Position numbers and translations under genes: made by a program. Below the pieces are notes generated by a model. That model did no database searches, had not been told where the DNA came from, and worked only from the letters and a program-made list of their open reading frames with translations. Positions 2,267 to 39,950 of a stretch of DNA of 54,750 nucleotides are shown here, one piece after another (position 1 is the first letter of the stretch; every line of letters begins with the position of its first letter). The stretch is from a virus (lineage: Duplodnaviria > Caudoviricetes). The DNA lies in the IMG/VR virus record IMGVR_UViG_3300044723_011986, positions 1-54,750 of that record, one strand, 5' to 3'.

Positions 2267-2864
2267 CTCTAATCTCCTTAAGATATTTTTTCTTGATGGT
2301 CTTATGCAGACCAGGATTAATCTCAAGGCAATCATACATCATTTTATTACGAATTAAAACACGAGGTCGATCAGTCAAAAGATTGGTTTCGTCAACATAG
2401 AAAGGTAAATTGTTGTAGTTGCAATATTCAATCAGCTGATCTTTCCGCGTCAACAGAAAAGGTCGAAGATAATTTCCACGAATTCGTGGAATAAGTTTCC
2501 CTTCTCCGTGAAGCGATGAAAAAATCCACCACTCAACTGCGTCATCAAGATGGTGAGCAGTGGCTACAGGGCGCTCAGATTGATCCAGGAAGTCATAACG
2601 CCCTTCTCTCCAGGTTGCCTCAAGGCCCTTGTTTGCATGTTCAACAGAAGACAACGTGGTCCATCTAAGAGGGATATCAAGTTGCCTACAGACTTTTTCT
2701 ACGATCGAAAGCGAAGCATCTGACGTCTTGGTTCCATGATGAACAAATGCAGCTGTGACATCTCGTCTGCTCTTTGCAAGGAATCCGAGAAGTGCAACAG
2801 AATCTGGCCCCCCGCTTAATGCGACTTCAACTTCTCTTGGAATTTTGCATGAAAGTTTAAACAT
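2247..2864 (-). CDS. tilS: tRNA(Ile)-lysidine synthetase-like PP-loop ATPase (catalytic domain only)
   Basis: ALSGGPDS PP-loop, REGRY, ATAHHLDDAVE, LRPFL, DETN motifs. Confidence 0.85.
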   Translation of the reverse strand: MFKLSCKIPREVEVALSGGPDSVALLGFLAKSRRDVTAAFVHHGTKTSDASLSIVEKVCRQLDIPLRWTTLSSVEHANKGLEATWREGRYDFLDQSERPVATAHHLDDAVEWWIFSSLHGEGKLIPRIRGNYLRPFLLTRKDQLIEYCNYNNLPFYVDETNLLTDRPRVLIRNKMMYDCLEINPGLHKTIKKKYLKEIRDERQGW

Positions 2865-2879
2865 TTTACCTCACACTTT

Positions 2880-2908
2880 ATTTTACATTGCCAGTTCTTA
2901 AAATGCAC
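2880..2908 (-). promoter_or_regulatory. Putative promoter GTGCAT-N17-TAAAAT
   Basis: Recurring motif in the intergenic gap upstream of tilS. Confidence 0.65.
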
Positions 2909-2909
2909 C

Positions 2910-3437
2910 CTAAACTAAGCACTCGTGAAATCCTGCTGGAAACACATCTTTGTTCTGGCTATAAAACCGCTTCCAATCGCTATCAAGAATGTAAGTAACT
3001 GCGTTGTCTTCCATTGATCGAACACTTCGACCATAAGCCTGGACAATTGTCATTGCAGTCTGCATTGGGTACCACTTCTCATTCTTGTTCATCCGCTTTC
3101 TAATAATTGGGTCACCAAGATAAGGATAGGGTACCTTGACAATAATCTGGAATCGAGAAGCATCTCCCTTTAAATCCACGCCTTCTGTCATCGAAGGCGT
3201 CAAAAGAACAGTGGGCTCCTTGGATGTGATATGCTTATGCAGAATCTCGTCTCGATTATCGCTATTATGTGTAAGAATCCGCTTCGATCGAAGTGCTTTC
3301 TTTAGATAATTAGCAATTTTATATGTATGACAGTTGTGAACCACTACGTTTTCAACAATAAAATTATGATTTTCTTTTACTTCTATGTCAAACACTTCGA
3401 TTGACTTGCTATTATATGTAATTGATTTGATCTTCAA
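2910..3437 (-). CDS. Split intein C-fragment (35 aa) fused to C-terminal half of DinG-like helicase
   Basis: TTG start with GGAG RBS; MKIKSI...VFDIEVKENHNFIVENVVVHN|C then SMTEGVDL, QIIVKVPYP, QAYGRSVRS, ILDSD helicase motifs. Confidence 0.92.
   Translation of the reverse strand: MKIKSITYNSKSIEVFDIEVKENHNFIVENVVVHNCHTYKIANYLKKALRSKRILTHNSDNRDEILHKHITSKEPTVLLTPSMTEGVDLKGDASRFQIIVKVPYPYLGDPIIRKRMNKNEKWYPMQTAMTIVQAYGRSVRSMEDNAVTYILDSDWKRFYSQNKDVFPAGFHECLV
3333..3437 (-). mobile_element. Split intein C-part (IntC)
   Basis: Intein blocks F/G ending His-Asn, followed by Cys+1. Confidence 0.9.
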
Positions 3438-4236
3438 GACTAGCTCCGTTTTCTAAATTTTCTATATCACATTTAAATAATAGTGCGTTATTATGTGTTT
3501 TACAAAACTCATTCCACTTAGATTCTGACTGATTCTGCCAGAATCCTTTTACCTCGATCCATACATCGAATTGTGGGACATAAAAGTCTGGCGTGTAGGT
3601 TTTGTTTAAAGACTCGATATAGAATGTCTTTGGTTCATATTGCCAGTCCAACCCTTGCTCATTTAGATATGTTGCCACGCGGAGTTCATAAGTGCTACGC
3701 AATATAATCAGTTTTCCTTTTGGCTCTTGAAACTTGATAAGAGTTCCTCTAGCATTATTTTTCATCCTTTCTAGAAATTCAATTCGAAAGTCTTTATCAT
3801 TCATTAATTTATTTTTCATGATTTGACTCATTTTTTCTCTAACTTTAGGCTTAAGCATAGGAGGAATATGTGTTGTATTCCAATAAGAATCCGGATCTTG
3901 CCATTGATGCTTCATCATTTTGCTATTTCGCTCTCGAATGTGTTTCTGGCGGTTGTGATCGATTGTTTTCTTTTGTCGTTGTTGTCGTTCTTCTCTTGTA
4001 AAAGTAGCCCATTCTGATTTTCTACAACACGAGTCACATGTCCATGGAAACTTTCTATTCATTTGATTTCCTCTAGAAGAAATACTAATAGAATCACATT
4101 GACTACACTTGTATTCAAATCTTCTTTTTTTCGAAAGTAGTCTGCCTCGGTAGTATACTTTGAACGTATCGCGTTCTATAGTGCAGTCATTAAATGGTAC
4201 AGGATTAGGTATAGTGTAAGGTAATTTATATGCCAT
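3412..4236 (-). CDS. Free-standing putative homing endonuclease (PD-(D/E)xK) with N-terminal Cys clusters
   Basis: CSQC...CDSCC; basic helical region; RSTYE...YEPKTF...YTPDFYVPQFDVWIEVKG; lies between split-intein halves. Confidence 0.8.
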   Translation of the reverse strand: MAYKLPYTIPNPVPFNDCTIERDTFKVYYRGRLLSKKRRFEYKCSQCDSISISSRGNQMNRKFPWTCDSCCRKSEWATFTREERQQRQKKTIDHNRQKHIRERNSKMMKHQWQDPDSYWNTTHIPPMLKPKVREKMSQIMKNKLMNDKDFRIEFLERMKNNARGTLIKFQEPKGKLIILRSTYELRVATYLNEQGLDWQYEPKTFYIESLNKTYTPDFYVPQFDVWIEVKGFWQNQSESKWNEFCKTHNNALLFKCDIENLENGASLEDQINYI

Positions 4237-4238
4237 GA

Positions 4239-4268
4239 TTGCCTCCTATAGTATATAGGCAAAAGGAG
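4239..4268 (-). promoter_or_regulatory. Hairpin occluding the endonuclease RBS
   Basis: CTCCTTTTGCCTATATACTATAGGAGGCAA: CCTATA/TATAGG, TTGCCT/AGGCAA and CTCCT/AGGAG complementarity over AGGAGG. Confidence 0.6.
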
Positions 4269-4289
4269 ACAATTCATACCTATTCAGTG

Positions 4290-5768
4290 TTATTTAATTT
4301 CGACAATATCATCATCAAGTGTGAGATACTGTGCCTCAACCCATCCTCGATTGTGAGTTAAAAACTTGTGGTCTGGAGTACAAGTTACAGTATCACCACT
4401 TTCTAGTTCTATCGTAAGTGTTGGTTTAATACCTCGATTCCAGAAGTTAGTCACTTCCTGAGCTTCAAATATTTTCTCTTCTTCATTATAAGAAAGGACA
4501 TATTCTCCTACTTGAACGTTTCGAAGTGGTTTTGTCCTACCATTAGCCATTGTCACACGGGCATCTCCATCAATACAATGGATGATACCCTTCTCTCCCG
4601 TGTGCTCAGCCAAAATTGCTTTAACAGCGTCTTTGGCTCTTGGAAGAGTAAAGTCAATTACCTTAGCGCTAAAACTTCCGATATTGGCATGAATAATCGG
4701 TCGATTCTCAATTGGAAAAGGTGAAGCGATACTAATTGAATCATAGTCGTCTTCAGCAATACCCATCGACTTTGCGAAACCCTTGGCATTAAGAATTGTT
4801 GCAGACATGAGAAGAACCTTGCGACCCATTCGGAAAAGATACGTCTCGGCATACTTTGATACGTCAATAGCACGGTAAGTAACACGAACAAATCCGCGCT
4901 TCTCTGTTTCGCCGACTTCCATCACCCAGTTATCTGAAGAATAATCTTCTAAGAAAAGAGTAAGCTTGTTTGAGTGAGACTTGAGCATGTCGTATTTGAG
5001 CGCAATTGCTGCCAAATCTTTTACACGAGATTTAAGTCCAAGATTTTCAAGCTGCTGCTCAAAATAGAGAATCTGCTTTTGAAGCTTAGGATTGTAGACA
5101 TCACGAAGCCACTTGTAGAATGCAACTGGAGTAATCTTGTCAGGCCACTTACATTTAACAACTTTATCGCAGAAATACTGACTTACAGAAAGTTCTACAA
5201 ACTTTGTTAGAACAGACTCAGCATTGTGTGCCTCGTCAACTACTAGAAAGTTTCTTGGAGTAATCTTTCCAGAATATGTAGATTCCATAATAAAATAAGG
5301 AAAGTTTGTTACAGACTCTGGTGACTCAAGAAAAAGCTTCTTTTCGCGCTTATAAAGACAGTCAGCTGTACACTTCTTAAAGAATCGAGAAGACTTATCT
5401 TCAGTCCTAAGCATTTGCTGACTTGCCTGACAAGTATTCTGTTTGTGAAACTCACACTGATAATTCTTTGACGAATAAACTGAGGTCATCTTTCCACTTG
5501 GATGCCCAAAGTCATTCTCATACTGCTCTTGAAGAACACGCTGTGTAGTTAGAAAGTAAGAACCTTTAGCGAATACTTCTGAGTGTGAAAGATTTTCGTT
5601 GACAATTCGTGCCAAAGTAAGTCCAATTGCAGACTTACCTACACCTGTCCCAGCTTCAAGAATAAAAAACTTCTTGTCATTTGTCAAGAAAGCTTTAAGT
5701 GCAGCTTCAATTGCCTGTTCCTGTTCTGGTCGGGGAACAGGATAGGGAAAGTGTTTACTAATATCCAA
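4290..5768 (-). CDS. N-terminal half of DinG/XPD-like SF2 helicase fused to split intein N-fragment
   Basis: RPEQ Q-motif, EAGTGVGKS, Cys cluster, VDEAH, MSAT; C-terminal 95 aa CIDGDARV...TCTPDHKFLT...GWVEA are intein blocks A/B. Confidence 0.92.
   Translation of the reverse strand: MDISKHFPYPVPRPEQEQAIEAALKAFLTNDKKFFILEAGTGVGKSAIGLTLARIVNENLSHSEVFAKGSYFLTTQRVLQEQYENDFGHPSGKMTSVYSSKNYQCEFHKQNTCQASQQMLRTEDKSSRFFKKCTADCLYKREKKLFLESPESVTNFPYFIMESTYSGKITPRNFLVVDEAHNAESVLTKFVELSVSQYFCDKVVKCKWPDKITPVAFYKWLRDVYNPKLQKQILYFEQQLENLGLKSRVKDLAAIALKYDMLKSHSNKLTLFLEDYSSDNWVMEVGETEKRGFVRVTYRAIDVSKYAETYLFRMGRKVLLMSATILNAKGFAKSMGIAEDDYDSISIASPFPIENRPIIHANIGSFSAKVIDFTLPRAKDAVKAILAEHTGEKGIIHCIDGDARVTMANGRTKPLRNVQVGEYVLSYNEEEKIFEAQEVTNFWNRGIKPTLTIELESGDTVTCTPDHKFLTHNRGWVEAQYLTLDDDIVEIK
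4293..4577 (-). mobile_element. Split intein N-part (IntN, 95 aa)
   Basis: Starts at Cys1 after GIIH; block B TPDH; ends at a stop codon. Confidence 0.9.
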
Positions 5769-5790
5769 AGTTAATCTCCTATGCTACACT

Positions 5791-5819
5791 ATTATAGTTC
5801 ACATAAGTAAGATTTACAC
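5791..5819 (-). promoter_or_regulatory. Putative promoter GTGTAA-N17-TATAAT
   Basis: Recurring motif upstream of helicase. Confidence 0.75.
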
Positions 5820-5821
5820 AC

Positions 5822-6139
5822 TTATAATTTTTCTAAAATGTCTTGCTTGTCAATTATTTGTTTTGCACCACGATGACGTAAGTAAGTTACAAATTCATTT
5901 CCAGTGGCGCCGCTAAATTTTATTTCTTTTGTTGAGATTCTCTCGAACTCAGGCAACATTTTTCTTTTTAGATAAATAGAACTTATTCTAATTACACCTT
6001 TTTCTTTTCTAAATGTAGTAATAAATTCTAGATGTCTTATCTGAACAGGTGTTCTTATTCCTGTTTTAGACTTAATAATCCCAAACATGGACTCCTGAAC
6101 GAGTTCTTCAATTGTAGATTTAGGTGAATGCCCAAACAT
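5822..6139 (-). CDS. Hypothetical protein
   Basis: 105-aa ORF with GGAG RBS. Confidence 0.7.
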   Translation of the reverse strand: MFGHSPKSTIEELVQESMFGIIKSKTGIRTPVQIRHLEFITTFRKEKGVIRISSIYLKRKMLPEFERISTKEIKFSGATGNEFVTYLRHRGAKQIIDKQDILEKL

Positions 6140-6152
6140 CTGACTTTCTCCA

Positions 6153-6635
6153 TTATTTTGTATGATTATCTGCGATAGATGATGATGCCCAAGAATCAGG
6201 CTTGATTTTTAAATCGTAACCCATGCCTGTAACCCAGCCAGACACAGAAGACATCATAACTCGTGTTTTGTTTTCTTTGGTCCTGCCAATATCAACATGA
6301 AGCTCAATAGGGGTATTTGGAGAAAATTCATTTATTTTTTGAGCAGCCTGAACTGATAGATTGACTTCTTCATTTATCTTGTTTTTAAGATTTTTGTATT
6401 CACTATTAACCACTTTAAATTTTTTATAGTAGTATTTAGCTATTTTACTTTCATTGTCGTGAAAAGCAACGACTGTTACAAATATGCAATTATTACCCCT
6501 TACCATCGAATCAGTTCCTACATAAACTTTAGATCCTCTTCTGATAAGGCTTTTGGCTTCGTTCATAAAATTATCAGCTGTAAGCTGGTCTTCTCCGGGA
6601 GAAATCCAATTAGGTTTATTGTCTAATAAAATCAT
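6153..6635 (-). CDS. RNase H-like YkuK (DUF458) family protein
   Basis: VYVGTDS, EVNLS, IELHVDIG, GMGY..KIKPDSWASSSIAD. Confidence 0.85.
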   Translation of the reverse strand: MILLDNKPNWISPGEDQLTADNFMNEAKSLIRRGSKVYVGTDSMVRGNNCIFVTVVAFHDNESKIAKYYYKKFKVVNSEYKNLKNKINEEVNLSVQAAQKINEFSPNTPIELHVDIGRTKENKTRVMMSSVSGWVTGMGYDLKIKPDSWASSSIADNHTK

Positions 6636-18628: not shown

Positions 18629-20236
18629 TTAGCTTTTATTTGAAATTTCATCAACCATTGCAGACCCTACAGATAGCAAAGCTATGGCTGCTGAAGAAGC
18701 ATTTTCGAGAGCACATCTTGTAACCTTGAATGGATCGACGATTCCCAGTTCAAACATGTCTCCAAAATTATCGTTTCTAAAATCAAATCCAATATCAACT
18801 TCATGACTAAAGATTTTATCTAAATACGCATCTGGGTTTTTTCCACCATTCAAGACTATTTGTCTAAAAGGCTCCTGACAAGCTTGTGAAACAATTGAAA
18901 GACCTGCTTTAGTAGACGGTGTGAGATCACTTCTTGTCTCTTCTTCGCGAACTTTTACATGCGATCTAGCTAATGCAACGCCGCCTCCGGGAAGTATTCC
19001 TTCTGCAATTGCTGCTTTTGTTGCGTGGAGCGCATCATCTACTCTATCATATCTTTCAATAAGCTCAGCCTCGGTAGCAGCACCTACTCTCAAAATCGAA
19101 ATTGCACCGCTAAGCTGACGAAGACGATATGTGCAAAGTTCTCTTTCGTCATTTGATAGACTTGGATCCTCTAACATTTCTTTTACTGCAGAGATTCTTG
19201 AAAGACATCTTTCATTTTTATTGTCGTCAGTCATAAATAGTGTAGAAGCTCTTTGAATAATTGCACGCTTGGACGTTCCAAACATTTCTTCACTAAAGTC
19301 TTCCATATTAAAAGAGGCATCTAAAACTTGCCCTCCGATAATCGACTGAAGGTCGTTTAGAAGTTCGTGCCTTGTTGCTCCAAAACCTGGAGACTTAATC
19401 GCTGCTACACGTAGCGATCCCTTGACTTTGTTAAGAACTAATCCTTGAAGAGCTTCGTCATCAATTTCATTTGCAATAACAATAATTGGACGATTCATAT
19501 CCAAAGCTTTTTCAAGCGGATTCATTAACCCATGGATTGATGTAAAACTATCATCAACCATTAAAATTAAAGGATCTTTGAAGTCACAAATAGACTTATC
19601 TTTGTCTGTTATAAAGTAAGGAGAAAGATATCCTCTTTCAAGCTGATATCCGTCAACAACTGTCAATGAAGATTTAAATCCTTTAGCTTCTTCAACAATA
19701 ACTTCTCCGTCAACGCCAGACGCTTTGATTGCATTTACGATAAGATCAGCCACTTCTTCTTCACCGTTTGCTGAAATTAAAGCAACTTTCTTTAGATCTA
19801 AATCGTCTTCAACATCTCTTTTTTGTGAAGCTAACTCTTCTAAAACTATCTTTACGCCTAGACTAATTCCTTCTTTGATTTCTTCAGTTTCAAAACCTGC
19901 AGATTTCATTTGCAGACCTTTGCTAAAAATCGTCTGCGCTAAAACTGTTGCTGTTGTCGTTCCGTCACCTGCTGTATCAGCAGTTCTGGCCGCGGATTCT
20001 TTAATTACTCTTGCACCGAGATTTTCTACTTCGTCTGATAAGTTAATAGCATTAGCAACAGTCACTCCGTCTTTGGTTACTATTGGGTGCAAGTTGTTGC
20101 GCTGAATTAAAACCAATTTTCCTTTTGGTCCCATCGTTGTTTTGACTGTGTCAGCTAGTTTATCAACACCTCTTCGAAGAGCTGATGTTAGCTCTTCTCC
20201 ACTAATTATTTTTCTTTTTAATTCTTGTTCTCGCAT
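18629..20236 (-). CDS. groEL: Chaperonin GroEL
   Basis: TMGPKGK, VTKDGVTVA, AGDGTTTATVLA, GYLSPYF, KSPGFG, EGILPGGG, GIVDP. Confidence 0.96.
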   Translation of the reverse strand: MREQELKRKIISGEELTSALRRGVDKLADTVKTTMGPKGKLVLIQRNNLHPIVTKDGVTVANAINLSDEVENLGARVIKESAARTADTAGDGTTTATVLAQTIFSKGLQMKSAGFETEEIKEGISLGVKIVLEELASQKRDVEDDLDLKKVALISANGEEEVADLIVNAIKASGVDGEVIVEEAKGFKSSLTVVDGYQLERGYLSPYFITDKDKSICDFKDPLILMVDDSFTSIHGLMNPLEKALDMNRPIIVIANEIDDEALQGLVLNKVKGSLRVAAIKSPGFGATRHELLNDLQSIIGGQVLDASFNMEDFSEEMFGTSKRAIIQRASTLFMTDDNKNERCLSRISAVKEMLEDPSLSNDERELCTYRLRQLSGAISILRVGAATEAELIERYDRVDDALHATKAAIAEGILPGGGVALARSHVKVREEETRSDLTPSTKAGLSIVSQACQEPFRQIVLNGGKNPDAYLDKIFSHEVDIGFDFRNDNFGDMFELGIVDPFKVTRCALENASSAAIALLSVGSAMVDEISNKS

Positions 20237-36178: not shown

Positions 36179-36445
36179 TTAATTTACCTTTGTTATTCTA
36201 TAGCTTTTTTCTAAGTCTGAGTGATAAGGCTTCCAAAGCACATGCTCCGTAAGAATTTCATAACTTCGTATCCATTTCTTCTTTCCCGAGCTTACGCTGA
36301 CAACTATTCCGTACTTTATATCATTTTCAAAATCAGGGCCATAAAAAGGATAGTAAGAAATTACGTCGCCTGGATATAGCCTTTCAATAGTATACTCTTC
36401 TTTTTTTTGCTTACTCTTTTTATTATTTTTCTTTTTATTTGACAA
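36179..36445 (-). CDS. Small hypothetical protein (start uncertain)
   Basis: Fills gap between dnaE and guaC; PGDVISY...GIVVSV. Confidence 0.55.
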   Translation of the reverse strand: MSNKKKNNKKSKQKKEEYTIERLYPGDVISYYPFYGPDFENDIKYGIVVSVSSGKKKWIRSYEILTEHVLWKPYHSDLEKSYRITKVN

Positions 36446-39400
36446 GGGGTCTAATTTTTGCTGCACTTGTTGATGCTCCCCAGTTTGGATCGTTACTTGC
36501 ATTTGTCAACCAGATTGTATAAGGTTCCATAGAACTTGGAATTTCTCCCCAGACACGAAGCCAGCCAGAATTGCTTTCTTCATCTGTTATCTTAACACGG
36601 TAAAAGACCTTTTTATTTTTTGTAGTCTTTTTAATTGTTTCAACAACACAGCACCAAGCAATTCCTTTTTCTCCTGGGTCCATTTGAAGAACTGACTTCA
36701 CATTAGCACTTCGAATTTTTGTCATTAGCTCTTCTGGGAATGCCAAGTCATCACGTGTTGCAGAACACATATCCTGGTACATTTGAAGCTTTTCAATACG
36801 TGTCCAGTCTTCTGTATCTGTCGTCTGTTCAATCAGCTGAGGGAGAATAGGTTCAGCTCCTTTCTTTTCAGCTTGACGAAGTGTCATACCAAATTTACTT
36901 TTCCTAAGTGTAGTGTAGTTTTCGATAATAATATCATGAAGCTGCCTGTGATTCTTGATTTCACCTTTCCACATTTCCTCAAGAGCATCAAGCGACTCTG
37001 TCATGCAAAGAGCAGCGAAACCGGTCTTGTTAAGCTTAGAGTGATACCACTTGCCATTTTCGTCATACAACATCTGGTTAAGAGAAGTATACGGGCGATT
37101 CTGAAGGATTTCTTTAACAGCATTCTTACCAAGGCCTTTGATTGATGTAAGCGGCGGAATAAACGACTTCTTGTTTTCAGACCATACCCACTCAAGACCT
37201 GACTCATTGACGTCAGGAGTGCTGACGCCGTAACCCATCGCCTTGATTTCAGAGATTGCCTTTGCCAGGTTCTTTGGGTTACCGTTTTCTGACTGAAGGA
37301 TTGTAGCAAGCCAGTCTGTTTCGTAGTATGTGTGCAGCCAACCTGCATAGTAAGAACCAATAGCATAAGCAACAGCATGGGATTTGTTGAAGCCGTAAAC
37401 TGAGAAGAATTCAATCCTTTCCCACAGCTCTTGTGAAACATGTTCAGGAACGCCGTTAATTTCTTTGGCTCCTGTAATAAACTTAACTCTTGCTTCTTCG
37501 CGTTCACCGCCCTTCTTGCCCATCGTATCAAGTGACTTCTTAACAAGTGTTTTGCGAAGCTTGTCAGATTCTGCAGGAGTAAACCCACCTAATTTCTGTG
37601 CCAAGAGCATGAACTGCTCCTGGAAGGTGACGTGACCAAACGTAGGCCCAAGAATCTCTTTGATGATTGGATGAGCATATTCAATCTGGTCGGCCCGGGC
37701 CTTGTCCTTAACATACTTCTTATGAACGTTAGCACGAAGAGGTCCGGGACGATAGATTGCAGTCAAAGCAGCAAGCTCGATAATAGATGTAGGCTTTGCA
37801 TCCTCACAGAAACGCCTTGCACCTTCAGCAGTAAACTGAAAGACACCTACCTTTCGGCGCTGATGATAAACATGCTCCCAAACCTTTGGGTCGTCCTGCT
37901 CAACAAAGCGACAGTTGAGCTTTTCATCAAACCAATCACGGATTTCAATAAACGTTGGCTCTTTTCCTGTTTCTTTGGTAAGAATACGGCGAATGCAATT
38001 TTCAACATCCTTGAGGAGTGTAAGACCTAAGAAGTCAAACTTGATAAAACCATTATCTTCCAAGTTTCGGAAGTTCATACCCTCTGTCCAAGGAGTCTGG
38101 AGTTCACCTCGAACGCCAATAATAGGCATGGACTTTGCCAATTCTTCTGATGGGCCGATAATAACACCGCCAGCATGACGTCCAATAGAACGGTTCTGCA
38201 TAAAGAGAGCTTCGATGTGGTCTTTCACCTTTGGATATTTTTCCATAAAGGTTCGATAACCCTTAGAATACTGCATACAGTCTTCGTGCTTGAGAACAAA
38301 CACAGACTTCTCAGTATTTTCATCACGCGCTTGTGCCATGACTTCGTCCTGGAGTGGACCGGTCATCTTATTAACTTCAGCGAAGTCAATTTGATAAAAC
38401 TTGGCAATATCCTTAACGAGTGACTTGAGTTTTAGGGTGTTGAAGTTGGACACAGGAATGACAGACTCAAACCCATAAAGCTCGCGAGCTGCATTGATAA
38501 GTGCATCACGATCACCAGCGTCAGAGTCAATATCGGGCCACGAAGTGCGGTGGCGCCCTAGGAAACGCTCCCAAAGAAGATCGTACTTAAGAGGATCAAC
38601 CTGAGTAATTCCAAGCAGATAGTTAACCAATGAGCCACCACCAGAACCTCTTGCTGCACCAAAGAGTGTATGATCTGCAGCTTTGTGGAAAACTTCATTC
38701 ATGACTAAGAAGTAGTTTTCAAAGCCGAGAAACTTAATATCAGACAATTCCATCTTGGCGCGTTCAACGTATTCTTCTTTGGTATGAAGACCTTCCTTCA
38801 CCAAAGCTTTTTTAACTTTTTGCGCCAACTGTTGGAAAGCAGTCTGATCTGGGTTGTTAAAATCAGGTAGCTTAACACTAGTATCAATCCAACAGTCAGT
38901 ACACTTTTCCCAAGCAATATCATGAGTTCTTTCAATAGAGTCTTTAACGACTTGCTCATATCCTTCATACGTTTCTTTATATTCATCGTAATGCCTTGTA
39001 AATTCATCCCACATTTGCTGCGCATTCTTAGGATAAAGCTCGCACTTAAGATCTTCAAATTCTGGAAGTGGTGAAGGATCATTTCCCATCCAACCTAGCT
39101 TTTTATATAGCTCTCGTGCTTCCCATTTATCTGGATTGTAATAATGAGAGTCAGGAGTTGAAATCAGCTTGATACCTGTTTCATTAGCATGTCGAAGAAG
39201 ATGATGATTGACAAGATGCTGCTGCTTGAGACGATTGAACTGCAATTCAAGATAGAAGTTTTCTTCACCTACGGCATCAACAAAACGATCAGATAGATAC
39301 ATGAGCTCAGCTTGAATTTCAGAGTCTGATTTACCTAATGCATTTCCGCGCATGATTCGATTAGAGAAGATTCCGCCCAAACAGGCAGTTGAGACGTTAA

Positions 39401-39950
39401 GGCCCTTACCGTGTTGCTTGAGTAGATCGAAGTCAATGCGGGGATATCGATAGAATCCCTCTGTGTACGCACGTTTGATCAGAGTAAACAAATTGCCTAA
39501 ACCTTCACGGTTCTGCGCAGTGATTACCAGGTGATAACGTCGTTTCCATTCGTCTTTTGCAACGTCAACAGTTTTGGTCTCGTCTTCGTTTTCAATAACG
39601 TGACCTGCATCATCGTCTTCCTTGAGCGCTTTTTCCTTTGCCATGGCACGATCGATCTTTGCTTGCTCGTATTCTTCTTTCCATCCAGAAAGTGAAGGAA
39701 CAAAGTAAAATTCGCAGCCATAAATCTGTCGATATTTGCGACCACTCTTTTGAATTTTGGTGGCATGCTTGTGAGCATGTGCCAGACCACTTCCGTTTCC
39801 ATGATCTGTCAAACCCCAAGCGTCCATTCCGTTTTCAAGAACGAAGTCGATGTGGTCAGATGGATAACCTAATCCATCGAAAACAGAAAACCCTGTGTGG
39901 CCATGAAGGCCGACGAAGCGAGTTGGTGCTTTCATGTCAAAAATGTTCAT
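36435..39950 (-). CDS. dnaE: DNA polymerase III alpha subunit (family C)
   Basis: PHP LHGHTGFS..DG, TDHG; RGSGGGSLV, PDIDSD, HAGGV, KFDFLGL, YRPGP, YGFNKSHA. Confidence 0.96.
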   Translation of the reverse strand: MNIFDMKAPTRFVGLHGHTGFSVFDGLGYPSDHIDFVLENGMDAWGLTDHGNGSGLAHAHKHATKIQKSGRKYRQIYGCEFYFVPSLSGWKEEYEQAKIDRAMAKEKALKEDDDAGHVIENEDETKTVDVAKDEWKRRYHLVITAQNREGLGNLFTLIKRAYTEGFYRYPRIDFDLLKQHGKGLNVSTACLGGIFSNRIMRGNALGKSDSEIQAELMYLSDRFVDAVGEENFYLELQFNRLKQQHLVNHHLLRHANETGIKLISTPDSHYYNPDKWEARELYKKLGWMGNDPSPLPEFEDLKCELYPKNAQQMWDEFTRHYDEYKETYEGYEQVVKDSIERTHDIAWEKCTDCWIDTSVKLPDFNNPDQTAFQQLAQKVKKALVKEGLHTKEEYVERAKMELSDIKFLGFENYFLVMNEVFHKAADHTLFGAARGSGGGSLVNYLLGITQVDPLKYDLLWERFLGRHRTSWPDIDSDAGDRDALINAARELYGFESVIPVSNFNTLKLKSLVKDIAKFYQIDFAEVNKMTGPLQDEVMAQARDENTEKSVFVLKHEDCMQYSKGYRTFMEKYPKVKDHIEALFMQNRSIGRHAGGVIIGPSEELAKSMPIIGVRGELQTPWTEGMNFRNLEDNGFIKFDFLGLTLLKDVENCIRRILTKETGKEPTFIEIRDWFDEKLNCRFVEQDDPKVWEHVYHQRRKVGVFQFTAEGARRFCEDAKPTSIIELAALTAIYRPGPLRANVHKKYVKDKARADQIEYAHPIIKEILGPTFGHVTFQEQFMLLAQKLGGFTPAESDKLRKTLVKKSLDTMGKKGGEREEARVKFITGAKEINGVPEHVSQELWERIEFFSVYGFNKSHAVAYAIGSYYAGWLHTYYETDWLATILQSENGNPKNLAKAISEIKAMGYGVSTPDVNESGLEWVWSENKKSFIPPLTSIKGLGKNAVKEILQNRPYTSLNQMLYDENGKWYHSKLNKTGFAALCMTESLDALEEMWKGEIKNHRQLHDIIIENYTTLRKSKFGMTLRQAEKKGAEPILPQLIEQTTDTEDWTRIEKLQMYQDMCSATRDDLAFPEELMTKIRSANVKSVLQMDPGEKGIAWCCVVETIKKTTKNKKVFYRVKITDEESNSGWLRVWGEIPSSMEPYTIWLTNASNDPNWGASTSAAKIRPLVK

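Follow-up and report, generated by a model that had tools for sequence, protein, structure and literature searches.

The window analysed here, a stretch of 54,750 nt from the Caudoviricetes record IMGVR_UViG_3300044723_011986, carries on its minus strand, within 2910-5768, what we read as a fractured gene: a class-1 split intein in a Rad3/XPD/DinG-like helicase, broken by a free-standing homing endonuclease. We put the probability of this reading at about 0.85. Judging from their sequences, the two intein halves very probably splice in trans, and the endonuclease would cleave DNA and promote homing. An earlier note, made from the letters of the DNA alone, had described the locus as a fractured helicase gene in which a free-standing endonuclease separates the halves of a naturally split intein. 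The layout and the profile matches support this description, and the open reading frame (ORF) coordinates, lengths and motifs that the note gave are all correct by ORF calls and profile matches. The three ORFs (5768-4290, 4236-3412 and 3437-2910) lie on the same strand, each with a Shine-Dalgarno-like site, and the intein halves are about 0.9 kb apart. The parts of the locus are as follows.

4578..5768, minus strand: N-extein, helicase residues 1-397, with Walker A, four conserved Cys and the DEAH box
4290..4577, minus strand: N-half of the intein, 95 amino acids (aa), with the Cys1 codon at 4577-4575, T464/H467 and the stop codon at 4292-4290
4232..4280, minus strand: predicted RNA hairpin in the 53-nt spacer, pairing the AGGAGG and AUG of the endonuclease
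3412..4236, minus strand: free-standing endonuclease gene, 274 aa, with a four-Cys N-terminus, a helical middle and a C-terminal PD-(D/E)XK nuclease
3415-3750, minus strand: nuclease domain of the endonuclease, residues 163-274, the C-terminal PD-(D/E)XK part
3333..3437, minus strand: C-half of the intein, 35 aa, with TTG at 3437-3435, GGAG at 3447-3444 and the Asn35 codon at 3335-3333
2910..3332, minus strand: C-extein, Cys+1 (3332-3330) and the helicase C-terminal domain (Helicase_C_2), 140 aa plus stop

The split intein and its helicase host

The ORF 5768-4290 encodes the N fragment of 492 aa. It starts with TTG at 5768, seven bases downstream of AGGAG, and the uninterrupted helicase of a relative, IMG/VR locus L004, shares both this TTG start and the N-terminus. 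The C fragment (ORF 3437-2910) is 175 aa long and has, as the earlier note had claimed, its own TTG start and ribosome-binding site, GGAG lying six bases upstream. The C-half of another locus, L013, begins with the identical M-K-I-K-S head, but after ATG. The ATG of the endonuclease is preceded by AGGAGG five bases upstream, and the 3' end of its gene overlaps the start of the C-half by 26 nt (3412-3437).

Both intein halves are recognised by family profiles, a check that the earlier note had proposed and that each half passed at the NCBIfam cut-offs. Residues 398-471 of the N fragment match intein_Nterm (TIGR01445; 42.5 bits, cut-off 24.5) and residues 406-488 match Pfam Intein_splicing (PF14890; 42 bits, cut-off 35.8). 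Cys1 is residue 398, located immediately after the final residue of the extein, and the N-half thus comprises 95 aa. Residues 1-35 of the C fragment form the C-half, which ends with H-N, is followed by Cys and matches intein_Cterm (TIGR01443; 24.1 bits, cut-off 15.6). C398, T464, P465 and H467 are invariant in 14/14 aligned N-halves, themselves 31-87% identical to that of the window, and H24, H34, N35 and C36 are invariant in 30/30 aligned C-halves, themselves 38-94% identical. The set comprising Cys1, a T-x-x-H block B, a terminal His-Asn with Cys+1 and NCBIfam scores above cut-off is that of class-1 inteins, and the element is classified accordingly as a naturally split class-1 intein. The nearest solved inteins by sequence are the DnaB mini-intein 4o1r (E 1.9e-6) and NrdJ-1 (8ubs, E 1.8e-5), and gp41-1 (6qaz) is distant (E 0.013). 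In the three loci for which DNA is available, the intein is 31-44% identical. The earlier note had also pointed to an acidic tail of the N-half and a basic head of the C-half. Locally the charges are indeed complementary, with -3 in the last 20 residues of the N-half (-7 for the whole N-half) and of +3 in the first 12 residues of the C-half; taken as a whole, however, the C-half has a charge of -1 and is not basic.

Association of the halves was modelled with residues 388-492 of the N fragment and residues 1-50 of the C fragment. The complex model scored 0.73, against 0.01 for the best of 3 controls; this mark is attained by 58 of 80 solved complexes and by 2 of 110 mismatched pairs. At least 92% of the contacts were common to the runs, and the partner had a predicted local distance difference test (pLDDT) value of at least 69. 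Because split-intein complexes have already been solved and deposited in the PDB, the pass may mean likeness to known split inteins rather than binding by the copy in the window. The complex model, moreover, shows binding only, as would suit halves that act as affinity tags and hold the helicase pieces together with no peptide bond, in the manner of the Aeh1 NrdA interaction domains. For Aeh1 NrdA, the available portions of two papers (PMC2677866, PMC3045599) document that a fractured phage gene can be rescued non-covalently. We nevertheless consider such tags improbable here, because binding alone would not preserve the residues that serve only the chemistry (Cys1, block-B Thr/His, the terminal Asn and Cys+1), and these never vary among the 14 N-halves and 30 C-halves, whose identity is otherwise 31-94%.

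The gene into which this class-1 split intein is inserted encodes a phage helicase. Residues 2-398 of the N fragment match the helicase family phrog_2488 (profile positions 9-434 of 579, E 2.4e-63) as well as ResIII/DEAD of Pfam, and the C fragment beyond its intein part corresponds to Helicase_C_2 (PF13307; 73.6 bits, cut-off 25.3) and to phrog_2488 positions 427-574. Rad3/XPD/DinG helicases have an Fe-S domain, with four Cys, between Walker A and DEAH. The host helicase has the same cysteine pattern: C105, C113 and C137 are invariant in 14/14 sequences, as are D178, E179 and H181, and C133 is nearly so. The only PDB matches of the uninterrupted relative L004 are the XPD chains 3crv and 2vl7. 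The best NCBIfam matches of the host are DinG, YoaA and Rad3, all far under their cut-offs (the best DinG equivalog model scores the C fragment at 46 bits, with a cut-off of 598, and the whole L004 protein at 75 bits). Therefore, the host is assigned to the Rad3/XPD/DinG-like superfamily-2 helicases and is best described as DinG-like, not as DinG proper.

The claim of the earlier note that joining the exteins gives a continuous helicase is borne out by the uninterrupted relatives, with which the joined product is collinear and has Cys at the junction. The exteins total 1614 nt, as do the uninterrupted genes of L010 and L012, the gene of L004 being 3 nt longer. The three loci span the site as ...H-C-(H/N)-(T/S)-Y-K-I..., all with Cys at +1. 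The nearest relative is L004, where the site lies in a single 538-aa ORF and reads ...V-I-H-C-H-T-Y-K-I...; its N- and C-terminal parts are 93% and 98% identical to the exteins of the window. Three deposited phage helicases (540-557 aa) also align across the break without a gap. In the alignment of L004 with archaeal XPD (2vl7), the +1 Cys falls within the XPD strand V-F-F-P-S-Y, which we take to be helicase motif IV. Inteins are typically located in conserved motifs of their host proteins. A megablast search with 2800-5900 found no match among GenBank phages, and tblastn with the N fragment matched 496 GenBank phage records, all below 60% identity. Two GenBank matches (H1 and H3) were considered as intein carriers and rejected, both being uninterrupted 557-aa helicases.

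The free-standing endonuclease and its leader

Among PDB chains, the endonuclease matches T7 endonuclease I alone (phmmer, E 2.9e-6), and with a profile built from 17 endonuclease sequences T7 endonuclease I ranks first (E 5.9e-13) and the Bax1 nuclease second (E 8.9e-5). No Vsr or I-Bth0305I (3r3p) chain was found with the protein query at E up to 1 or with the 17-sequence profile at E up to 10, and in Pfam at E up to 0.01 the endonuclease matches nothing except Phage_endo_I (PF05367). The related endonucleases of L014 and L005 score 30.2 and 39.3 bits, respectively, over the cut-off of this family. S181, E184, P216, D217, F218, E228 and K230 are invariant in 17/17 endonucleases; E184, D217, E228 and K230 represent the classical E-D-E-K set and align with the motifs of T7 endonuclease I. 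In the N-terminal region, one Cys (C44) is invariant and another three (C47, C67 and C70) are almost so, suggesting that the four-Cys motif is a zinc finger.

In the AF2 model of the endonuclease (pLDDT 87), the nuclease forms the C-terminal part, the middle is helical and there is also a small beta region. In VIA superpositions, residues 163-274 align with TnsA (Z 8.8, root-mean-square deviation (rmsd) 2.2, 97 aligned), I-Bth0305I (Z 7.6, rmsd 2.9, 84 aligned) and Vsr (Z 7.4, rmsd 2.7, 89 aligned), and the predicted fold is the restriction-endonuclease fold common to these three proteins. Foldseek with the whole endonuclease model returned nothing at E <=0.001, and T7 endonuclease I reached a template modelling (TM) score of only 0.30. 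T7 endonuclease I is a domain-swapped dimer, to which we attribute this low score. The catalytic His of the EDxHD family would fall on Q234, a near-invariant Gln, a placement made by spacing from the P-D motif and not by residue-level alignment. Because of its catalytic residues and its sequence, we group the endonuclease with T7 endonuclease I, and not with the EDxHD family as defined in the available portion of PMC3239194. The 17-sequence alignment was too diverse for a scan of loci. A narrower alignment led to 80 loci, with the nuclease domain matched alone, and an intein-like piece was found nearby in one of them. Therefore, the broad T7-endonuclease-I-like family is mostly not linked to inteins.

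The leader of the endonuclease gene is predicted to fold into a hairpin with a minimum free energy of -17.8 kcal/mol (z -2.58; 2 of 200 shuffles fold equally well). The hairpin is retained in 5/5 close loci, namely, the window and four others. Its 15 pairs are all predicted ones; compensatory changes are found at two of the 15, and three are broken, in one sequence each. This hairpin over the ribosome-binding site probably limits translation of the endonuclease.

Recurrence, alleles and genomic setting

The same split is found at the same site in many independent metagenome proteins and contigs and hence is not due to chance. A C-half ending with H-N before Cys is present in 30 of 120 listed C-fragment clusters, with a length of 34-35 aa, or more if the gene call begins upstream. 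A protein search with the N-half region yielded 17 proteins, which include 11 helicase N fragments (492-522 aa), one helicase of 674 aa whose mini-intein is contiguous (P0132), three DnaE fragments and two others. Twelve metagenome loci were found with the nuclease, five of which carry it at 80-98% identity and flanked by whichever intein halves fit on the contig. The split pair is one member of a diverse family found commonly in aquatic metagenomes. The split form is a minority among the 52 distinct IMG/VR helicase contigs fetched, 50 of which are uninterrupted at the site and only two of which (L013, L014) carry the split intein. Such a distribution would agree with a helicase that was inactivated by insertion of the endonuclease and whose fragments are decaying remnants of a dispensable gene. 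We regard decay as slightly less probable still than non-covalent tagging: there are zero frameshifts or internal stops in any fragment, the helicase motifs are invariant, all three ORFs keep their start signals, and split alleles persist in lineages with exteins 34-92% identical.

Of the words sampled from 2900-5800, at least half were present in each of 16 public metagenome runs (estuary, marine, seawater and freshwater). In one of them, the DNA run X4 from a different study, a 1340-nt contig corresponds to 3291-4630 with 0 differences and takes in both extein-intein junctions, the stop codon 4290-4292 and the entire nuclease gene. An assembly error at the stop at 4290, which the earlier note had named as a possible refutation, is therefore excluded, as is an assembly artefact in general. 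It is scarcely credible, and nothing was found to suggest, that the split is an assembly or sequencing artefact or that the insert is removed as an RNA intron, another refutation foreseen in that note, because independent contigs of other studies reproduce the stop and the three ORFs, Rfam detects no intron or other RNA family over 2700-6000 on either strand at E up to 1, contigs from RNA libraries cross 4290 and 3437 without a joint (though they are too few to claim transcription or to exclude RNA joints), and in-frame intein halves would be left unexplained.

A series of alleles is found at this one site. The site is empty in L004 and others, and is occupied by the contiguous mini-intein in P0132. 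The intein is split and accompanied by the endonuclease in the window, L014 and L144-L148. In P0125 and P0131 it is split with only the last ~15 residues of the endonuclease left, fused in frame to the N-half; the tails of both proteins repeat the nuclease end ...L-E-N-G-x-S-L-E-x-x-I-N-Y. Finally, in L013 the halves are separated by a 16-nt spacer. A scan of IMG/VR for the P0132 allele gave 31 loci, all of them uninterrupted helicases. The intein is better conserved than the gene that hosts it. In P0126-P0131, the N-extein is 43-49% identical to that of the window, versus 67-83% for the intein N-half. Identities in L146 are 40% for the extein tail, 92% for the N-half and 97% for the C-half; those in L148 are 63% for the C-extein and 89% for the C-half and the nuclease alike. 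This discordance gives signs that the cassette moves.

In one estuary sample, X4, close relatives with the empty and with the occupied allele are found together, as seen in one low-depth contig. In this second X4 contig, of 95 nt, position 3329 is joined to 4575, with 1245 nt skipped and 3 ambiguous bases at the joint. The skipped 1245 nt are exactly 3333-4577, the whole intein-plus-endonuclease cassette, and the ambiguity of three bases is due to the codons of Cys1 and Cys+1, which are both TGT. The presence of both alleles in one sample is the condition that homing requires.

Parts of the cassette resemble sequences from other fractured genes. The window N-half looks mosaic: its residues 66-95 are identical at 26/29 positions to the DnaE N-half P0133, in contrast to 18/60 for residues 1-65, and the allelic helicase N-halves match the tail of the window N-half less well (L013, 17/30; L014, 16/26). 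Locus L059 (4980-9700; same in L060) contains a fractured DnaE gene, arranged in three ORFs as in the window, whose 282-aa endonuclease combines a zinc finger with a PD-ExK nuclease; the tail of its intein N-half is 22/29 identical to that of the window. Locus L019 (1-3107; same in L023) has a fractured ribonucleotide-reductase (NrdJ)-like gene with a related split intein. Its 338-aa endonuclease is ordered differently, with the PD-ExK motif at the N-terminus and NUMOD3, and the fractured gene is 0.7 kb upstream of an uninterrupted helicase copy. We tentatively suggest, without yet favouring it, that the window endonuclease represents a new homing-endonuclease family (zinc finger plus a T7-endonuclease-I-like nuclease) which would recognise the DNA of the intein and not that of the host gene. 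Such enzymes might enter mini-inteins at the standard slot, split them and carry adjoining intein sequence between host genes. The suggestion is based on the DnaE-like tail of the N-half, the nuclease of the same build in L059, the other nuclease in L019 and the co-occurring alleles. Nucleases of the same build in fractured DnaE fit the model of Dassa et al. in which endonucleases invade inteins, although they do not prove it.

Further arrangements were seen in related loci. In L061 (4320-11204), a DnaE polymerase gene is apparently divided into four ORFs with three split inteins, as read from the translations, and two of the N-halves were confirmed by tblastn; the order is extein and N-half, then C-half, 34-aa extein and N-half, then C-half, extein and N-half, and finally C-half and extein. 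In L005 (3963-6605; same in L006, L009 and L011), a related 276-aa endonuclease lies inside the 5' end of the same helicase gene, with no intein, in two IMG/VR contigs. Here, a 33-aa remnant ORF with the first codons is followed by the endonuclease and then by a complete helicase ORF of 543 aa, the N-terminus of which is a diverged duplicate. Since the N-fragment P0121 carries the diverged segment of L005, loci of this type suggest a second homing site and a co-conversion tract.

Under the fractured-gene reading, the following sequence of events is proposed. A class-1 mini-intein would have been present within a conserved strand of the second motor domain of the helicase in a large aquatic phage, and a free-standing homing-endonuclease gene would have broken it in two. 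One strand would then give three proteins: the helicase N-part with the 95-aa N-half, the endonuclease, and the 35-aa C-half with the helicase C-part. The intein halves would associate into a folded HINT domain and undergo trans-splicing via Cys1, the block-B Thr/His, the terminal His-Asn and Cys+1, and the product would be a helicase of 537 residues with the native ...I-I-H-C-H-T-Y... junction. The endonuclease would cut intein-free or endonuclease-free alleles in co-infecting relatives, with the cassette being copied in, and the hairpin over its ribosome-binding site would restrict its translation.

Several points weigh against this scheme. We infer splicing and cleavage, whereas the anatomy of the locus, its conservation, the independent assemblies, the empty allele and the discordance between cassette and host gene are observed. 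The contiguous allele P0132 is known as a protein record only, and the joint of the empty allele rests on a single 95-nt contig with a depth of 2.6 and 2 differences from the window. The RNA evidence amounts to four contigs (151-240 nt, 0-1 differences) in three RNA libraries, X18-X20, and may reflect carried-over DNA. The C fragment alone matches Pfam Intein_splicing (122-155 of 155) with 26.3 bits, below the cut-off of 35.8, and the window endonuclease is likewise under the Phage_endo_I cut-off (26.0 versus 29.1 bits). The endonuclease of the distant locus L014 has no such hairpin in front of it (z +0.72).

The window is a fragment of a large phage, since its relatives are IMG/VR contigs of up to 202 kb. 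Its GC content is 37%. It also encodes a GroEL-like chaperonin (18629-20236; phrog_5725, E 8e-136) and an uninterrupted family-B DNA polymerase of 1171 aa (36435-39950; phrog_405). The neighbours of the helicase are genes for an RNaseH_like protein (6153-6635; PF04308, E 1e-32) and a PP-loop ATPase (2247-2864; PF01171, E 2e-31). In L004 and L005, synteny is seen for the RNaseH-like gene and for two small ORFs upstream.

Significance and comparison with known systems

The locus changes no principle, as the arrangement has been known since 2009. It does, however, display at a single insertion site all the stages of the gene-breaking pathway that has been proposed, and because both alleles are found in one sample, the homing step can be tested. 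It also adds a fourth nuclease type to those inside fractured genes. Protein ligation already makes use of natural split inteins that come from fractured genes of phages (gp41-1 and NrdJ-1, for example), and new ones that do not cross-react are in demand. The pair described here is compact (95+35 aa) and has a native Cys at +1. With at least three diverged C-half sub-lineages, its family provides a panel for tests of speed and orthogonality. If the endonucleases do target intein DNA, the locus would exemplify, in a living system, the entire gene-breaking cycle that was put forward in 2009, and would be a natural source of several diverged, possibly orthogonal, split inteins of 95+35 aa.

Fractured genes were described in 2009 with gp41, IMPDH, DnaE, NrdA, NrdJ, ligase, terminase and one unknown protein as hosts (Dassa et al. 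2009, PMC2677866); the four hosts named in the earlier note, gp41, IMPDH, NrdJ and DnaE, are all listed there. According to the available portion of that paper, 15 of 16 endonuclease leaders contain a hairpin, and partial loci, which are not displayed, number in the hundreds. The window locus shares with those genes the three same-strand ORFs, the phage origin and the hairpin over the endonuclease start. Its dimensions are also similar: the spacer is 53 nt, versus 27-51 nt in the published genes, the overlap between endonuclease and C-half is 26 nt, versus 6-69 bp, and the halves of 95 and 35 aa compare with N-halves of 88-105 aa and C-halves of 33-54 aa. An endonuclease-free allele is represented by gp41-7 in the published set and by L013, P0125 and P0131 in the family of the window. 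By contrast, the Rad3/XPD/DinG-like helicase is outside the eight host types listed, and the endonuclease is neither GIY-YIG nor Vsr-like, unlike those given in the same portion of the paper.

Among individual split inteins, NrdJ-1 (8ubs) has a block-B region and an acidic tail that resemble the window N-half, and the charge pattern, with a negative N-half and a positive C-half head, is as in NrdJ-1, NrdA-2 and IMPDH-1 according to Dassa et al. (PMC2677866, same portion). The window intein nevertheless differs from NrdJ-1 and from the DnaB mini-inteins in its low overall similarity, its host and its insertion site. The cyanobacterial DnaE split intein (Npu/Ssp; 1zd7 and others), a weak sequence match (E ~0.002), is likewise of class 1, naturally split and broken in the region where endonucleases insert; its halves, unlike those of the window, are encoded at distant loci without an endonuclease.

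With respect to the nuclease, the EDxHD/Vsr-like I-Bth0305I (3r3p; Taylor et al. 2011, PMC3239194, as far as the available portion goes) has a similar build, with a DNA-binding N-terminal region and a C-terminal nuclease of restriction fold, and occupies the same split-intein niche. Likeness of the EDxHD catalytic domain to Vsr is reported in that portion as BLASTP values below 1e-3. The window endonuclease differs in having no sequence match to 3r3p/Vsr and in its E-D-E-K set with an invariant Lys230. T7 endonuclease I (1m0d, 2pfj; PF05367) is the best sequence match, and the four catalytic positions align. However, it is a 149-aa junction resolvase without a zinc-finger arm, whereas the window protein would act as a homing enzyme.

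A DinG-, Rad3- or XPD-type host for an intein or split intein was not found by full-text literature searches or in the available portions of PMC2677866, Pinto 2020 (PMC7090010), a 2025 Angewandte paper (PMC12707363) and Novikova 2016 (PMC4760082), with subscription papers, the intein registry and supplementary files outside the search. This provisionally agrees with the earlier note, which knew of no host of DinG type. The split-intein pair that it suggested might be new is not unique to the window and belongs to a diverse metagenome family. Provisionally, both the helicase as a host and the zinc-finger, T7-endonuclease-I-like enzyme as a nuclease are types new for fractured genes.

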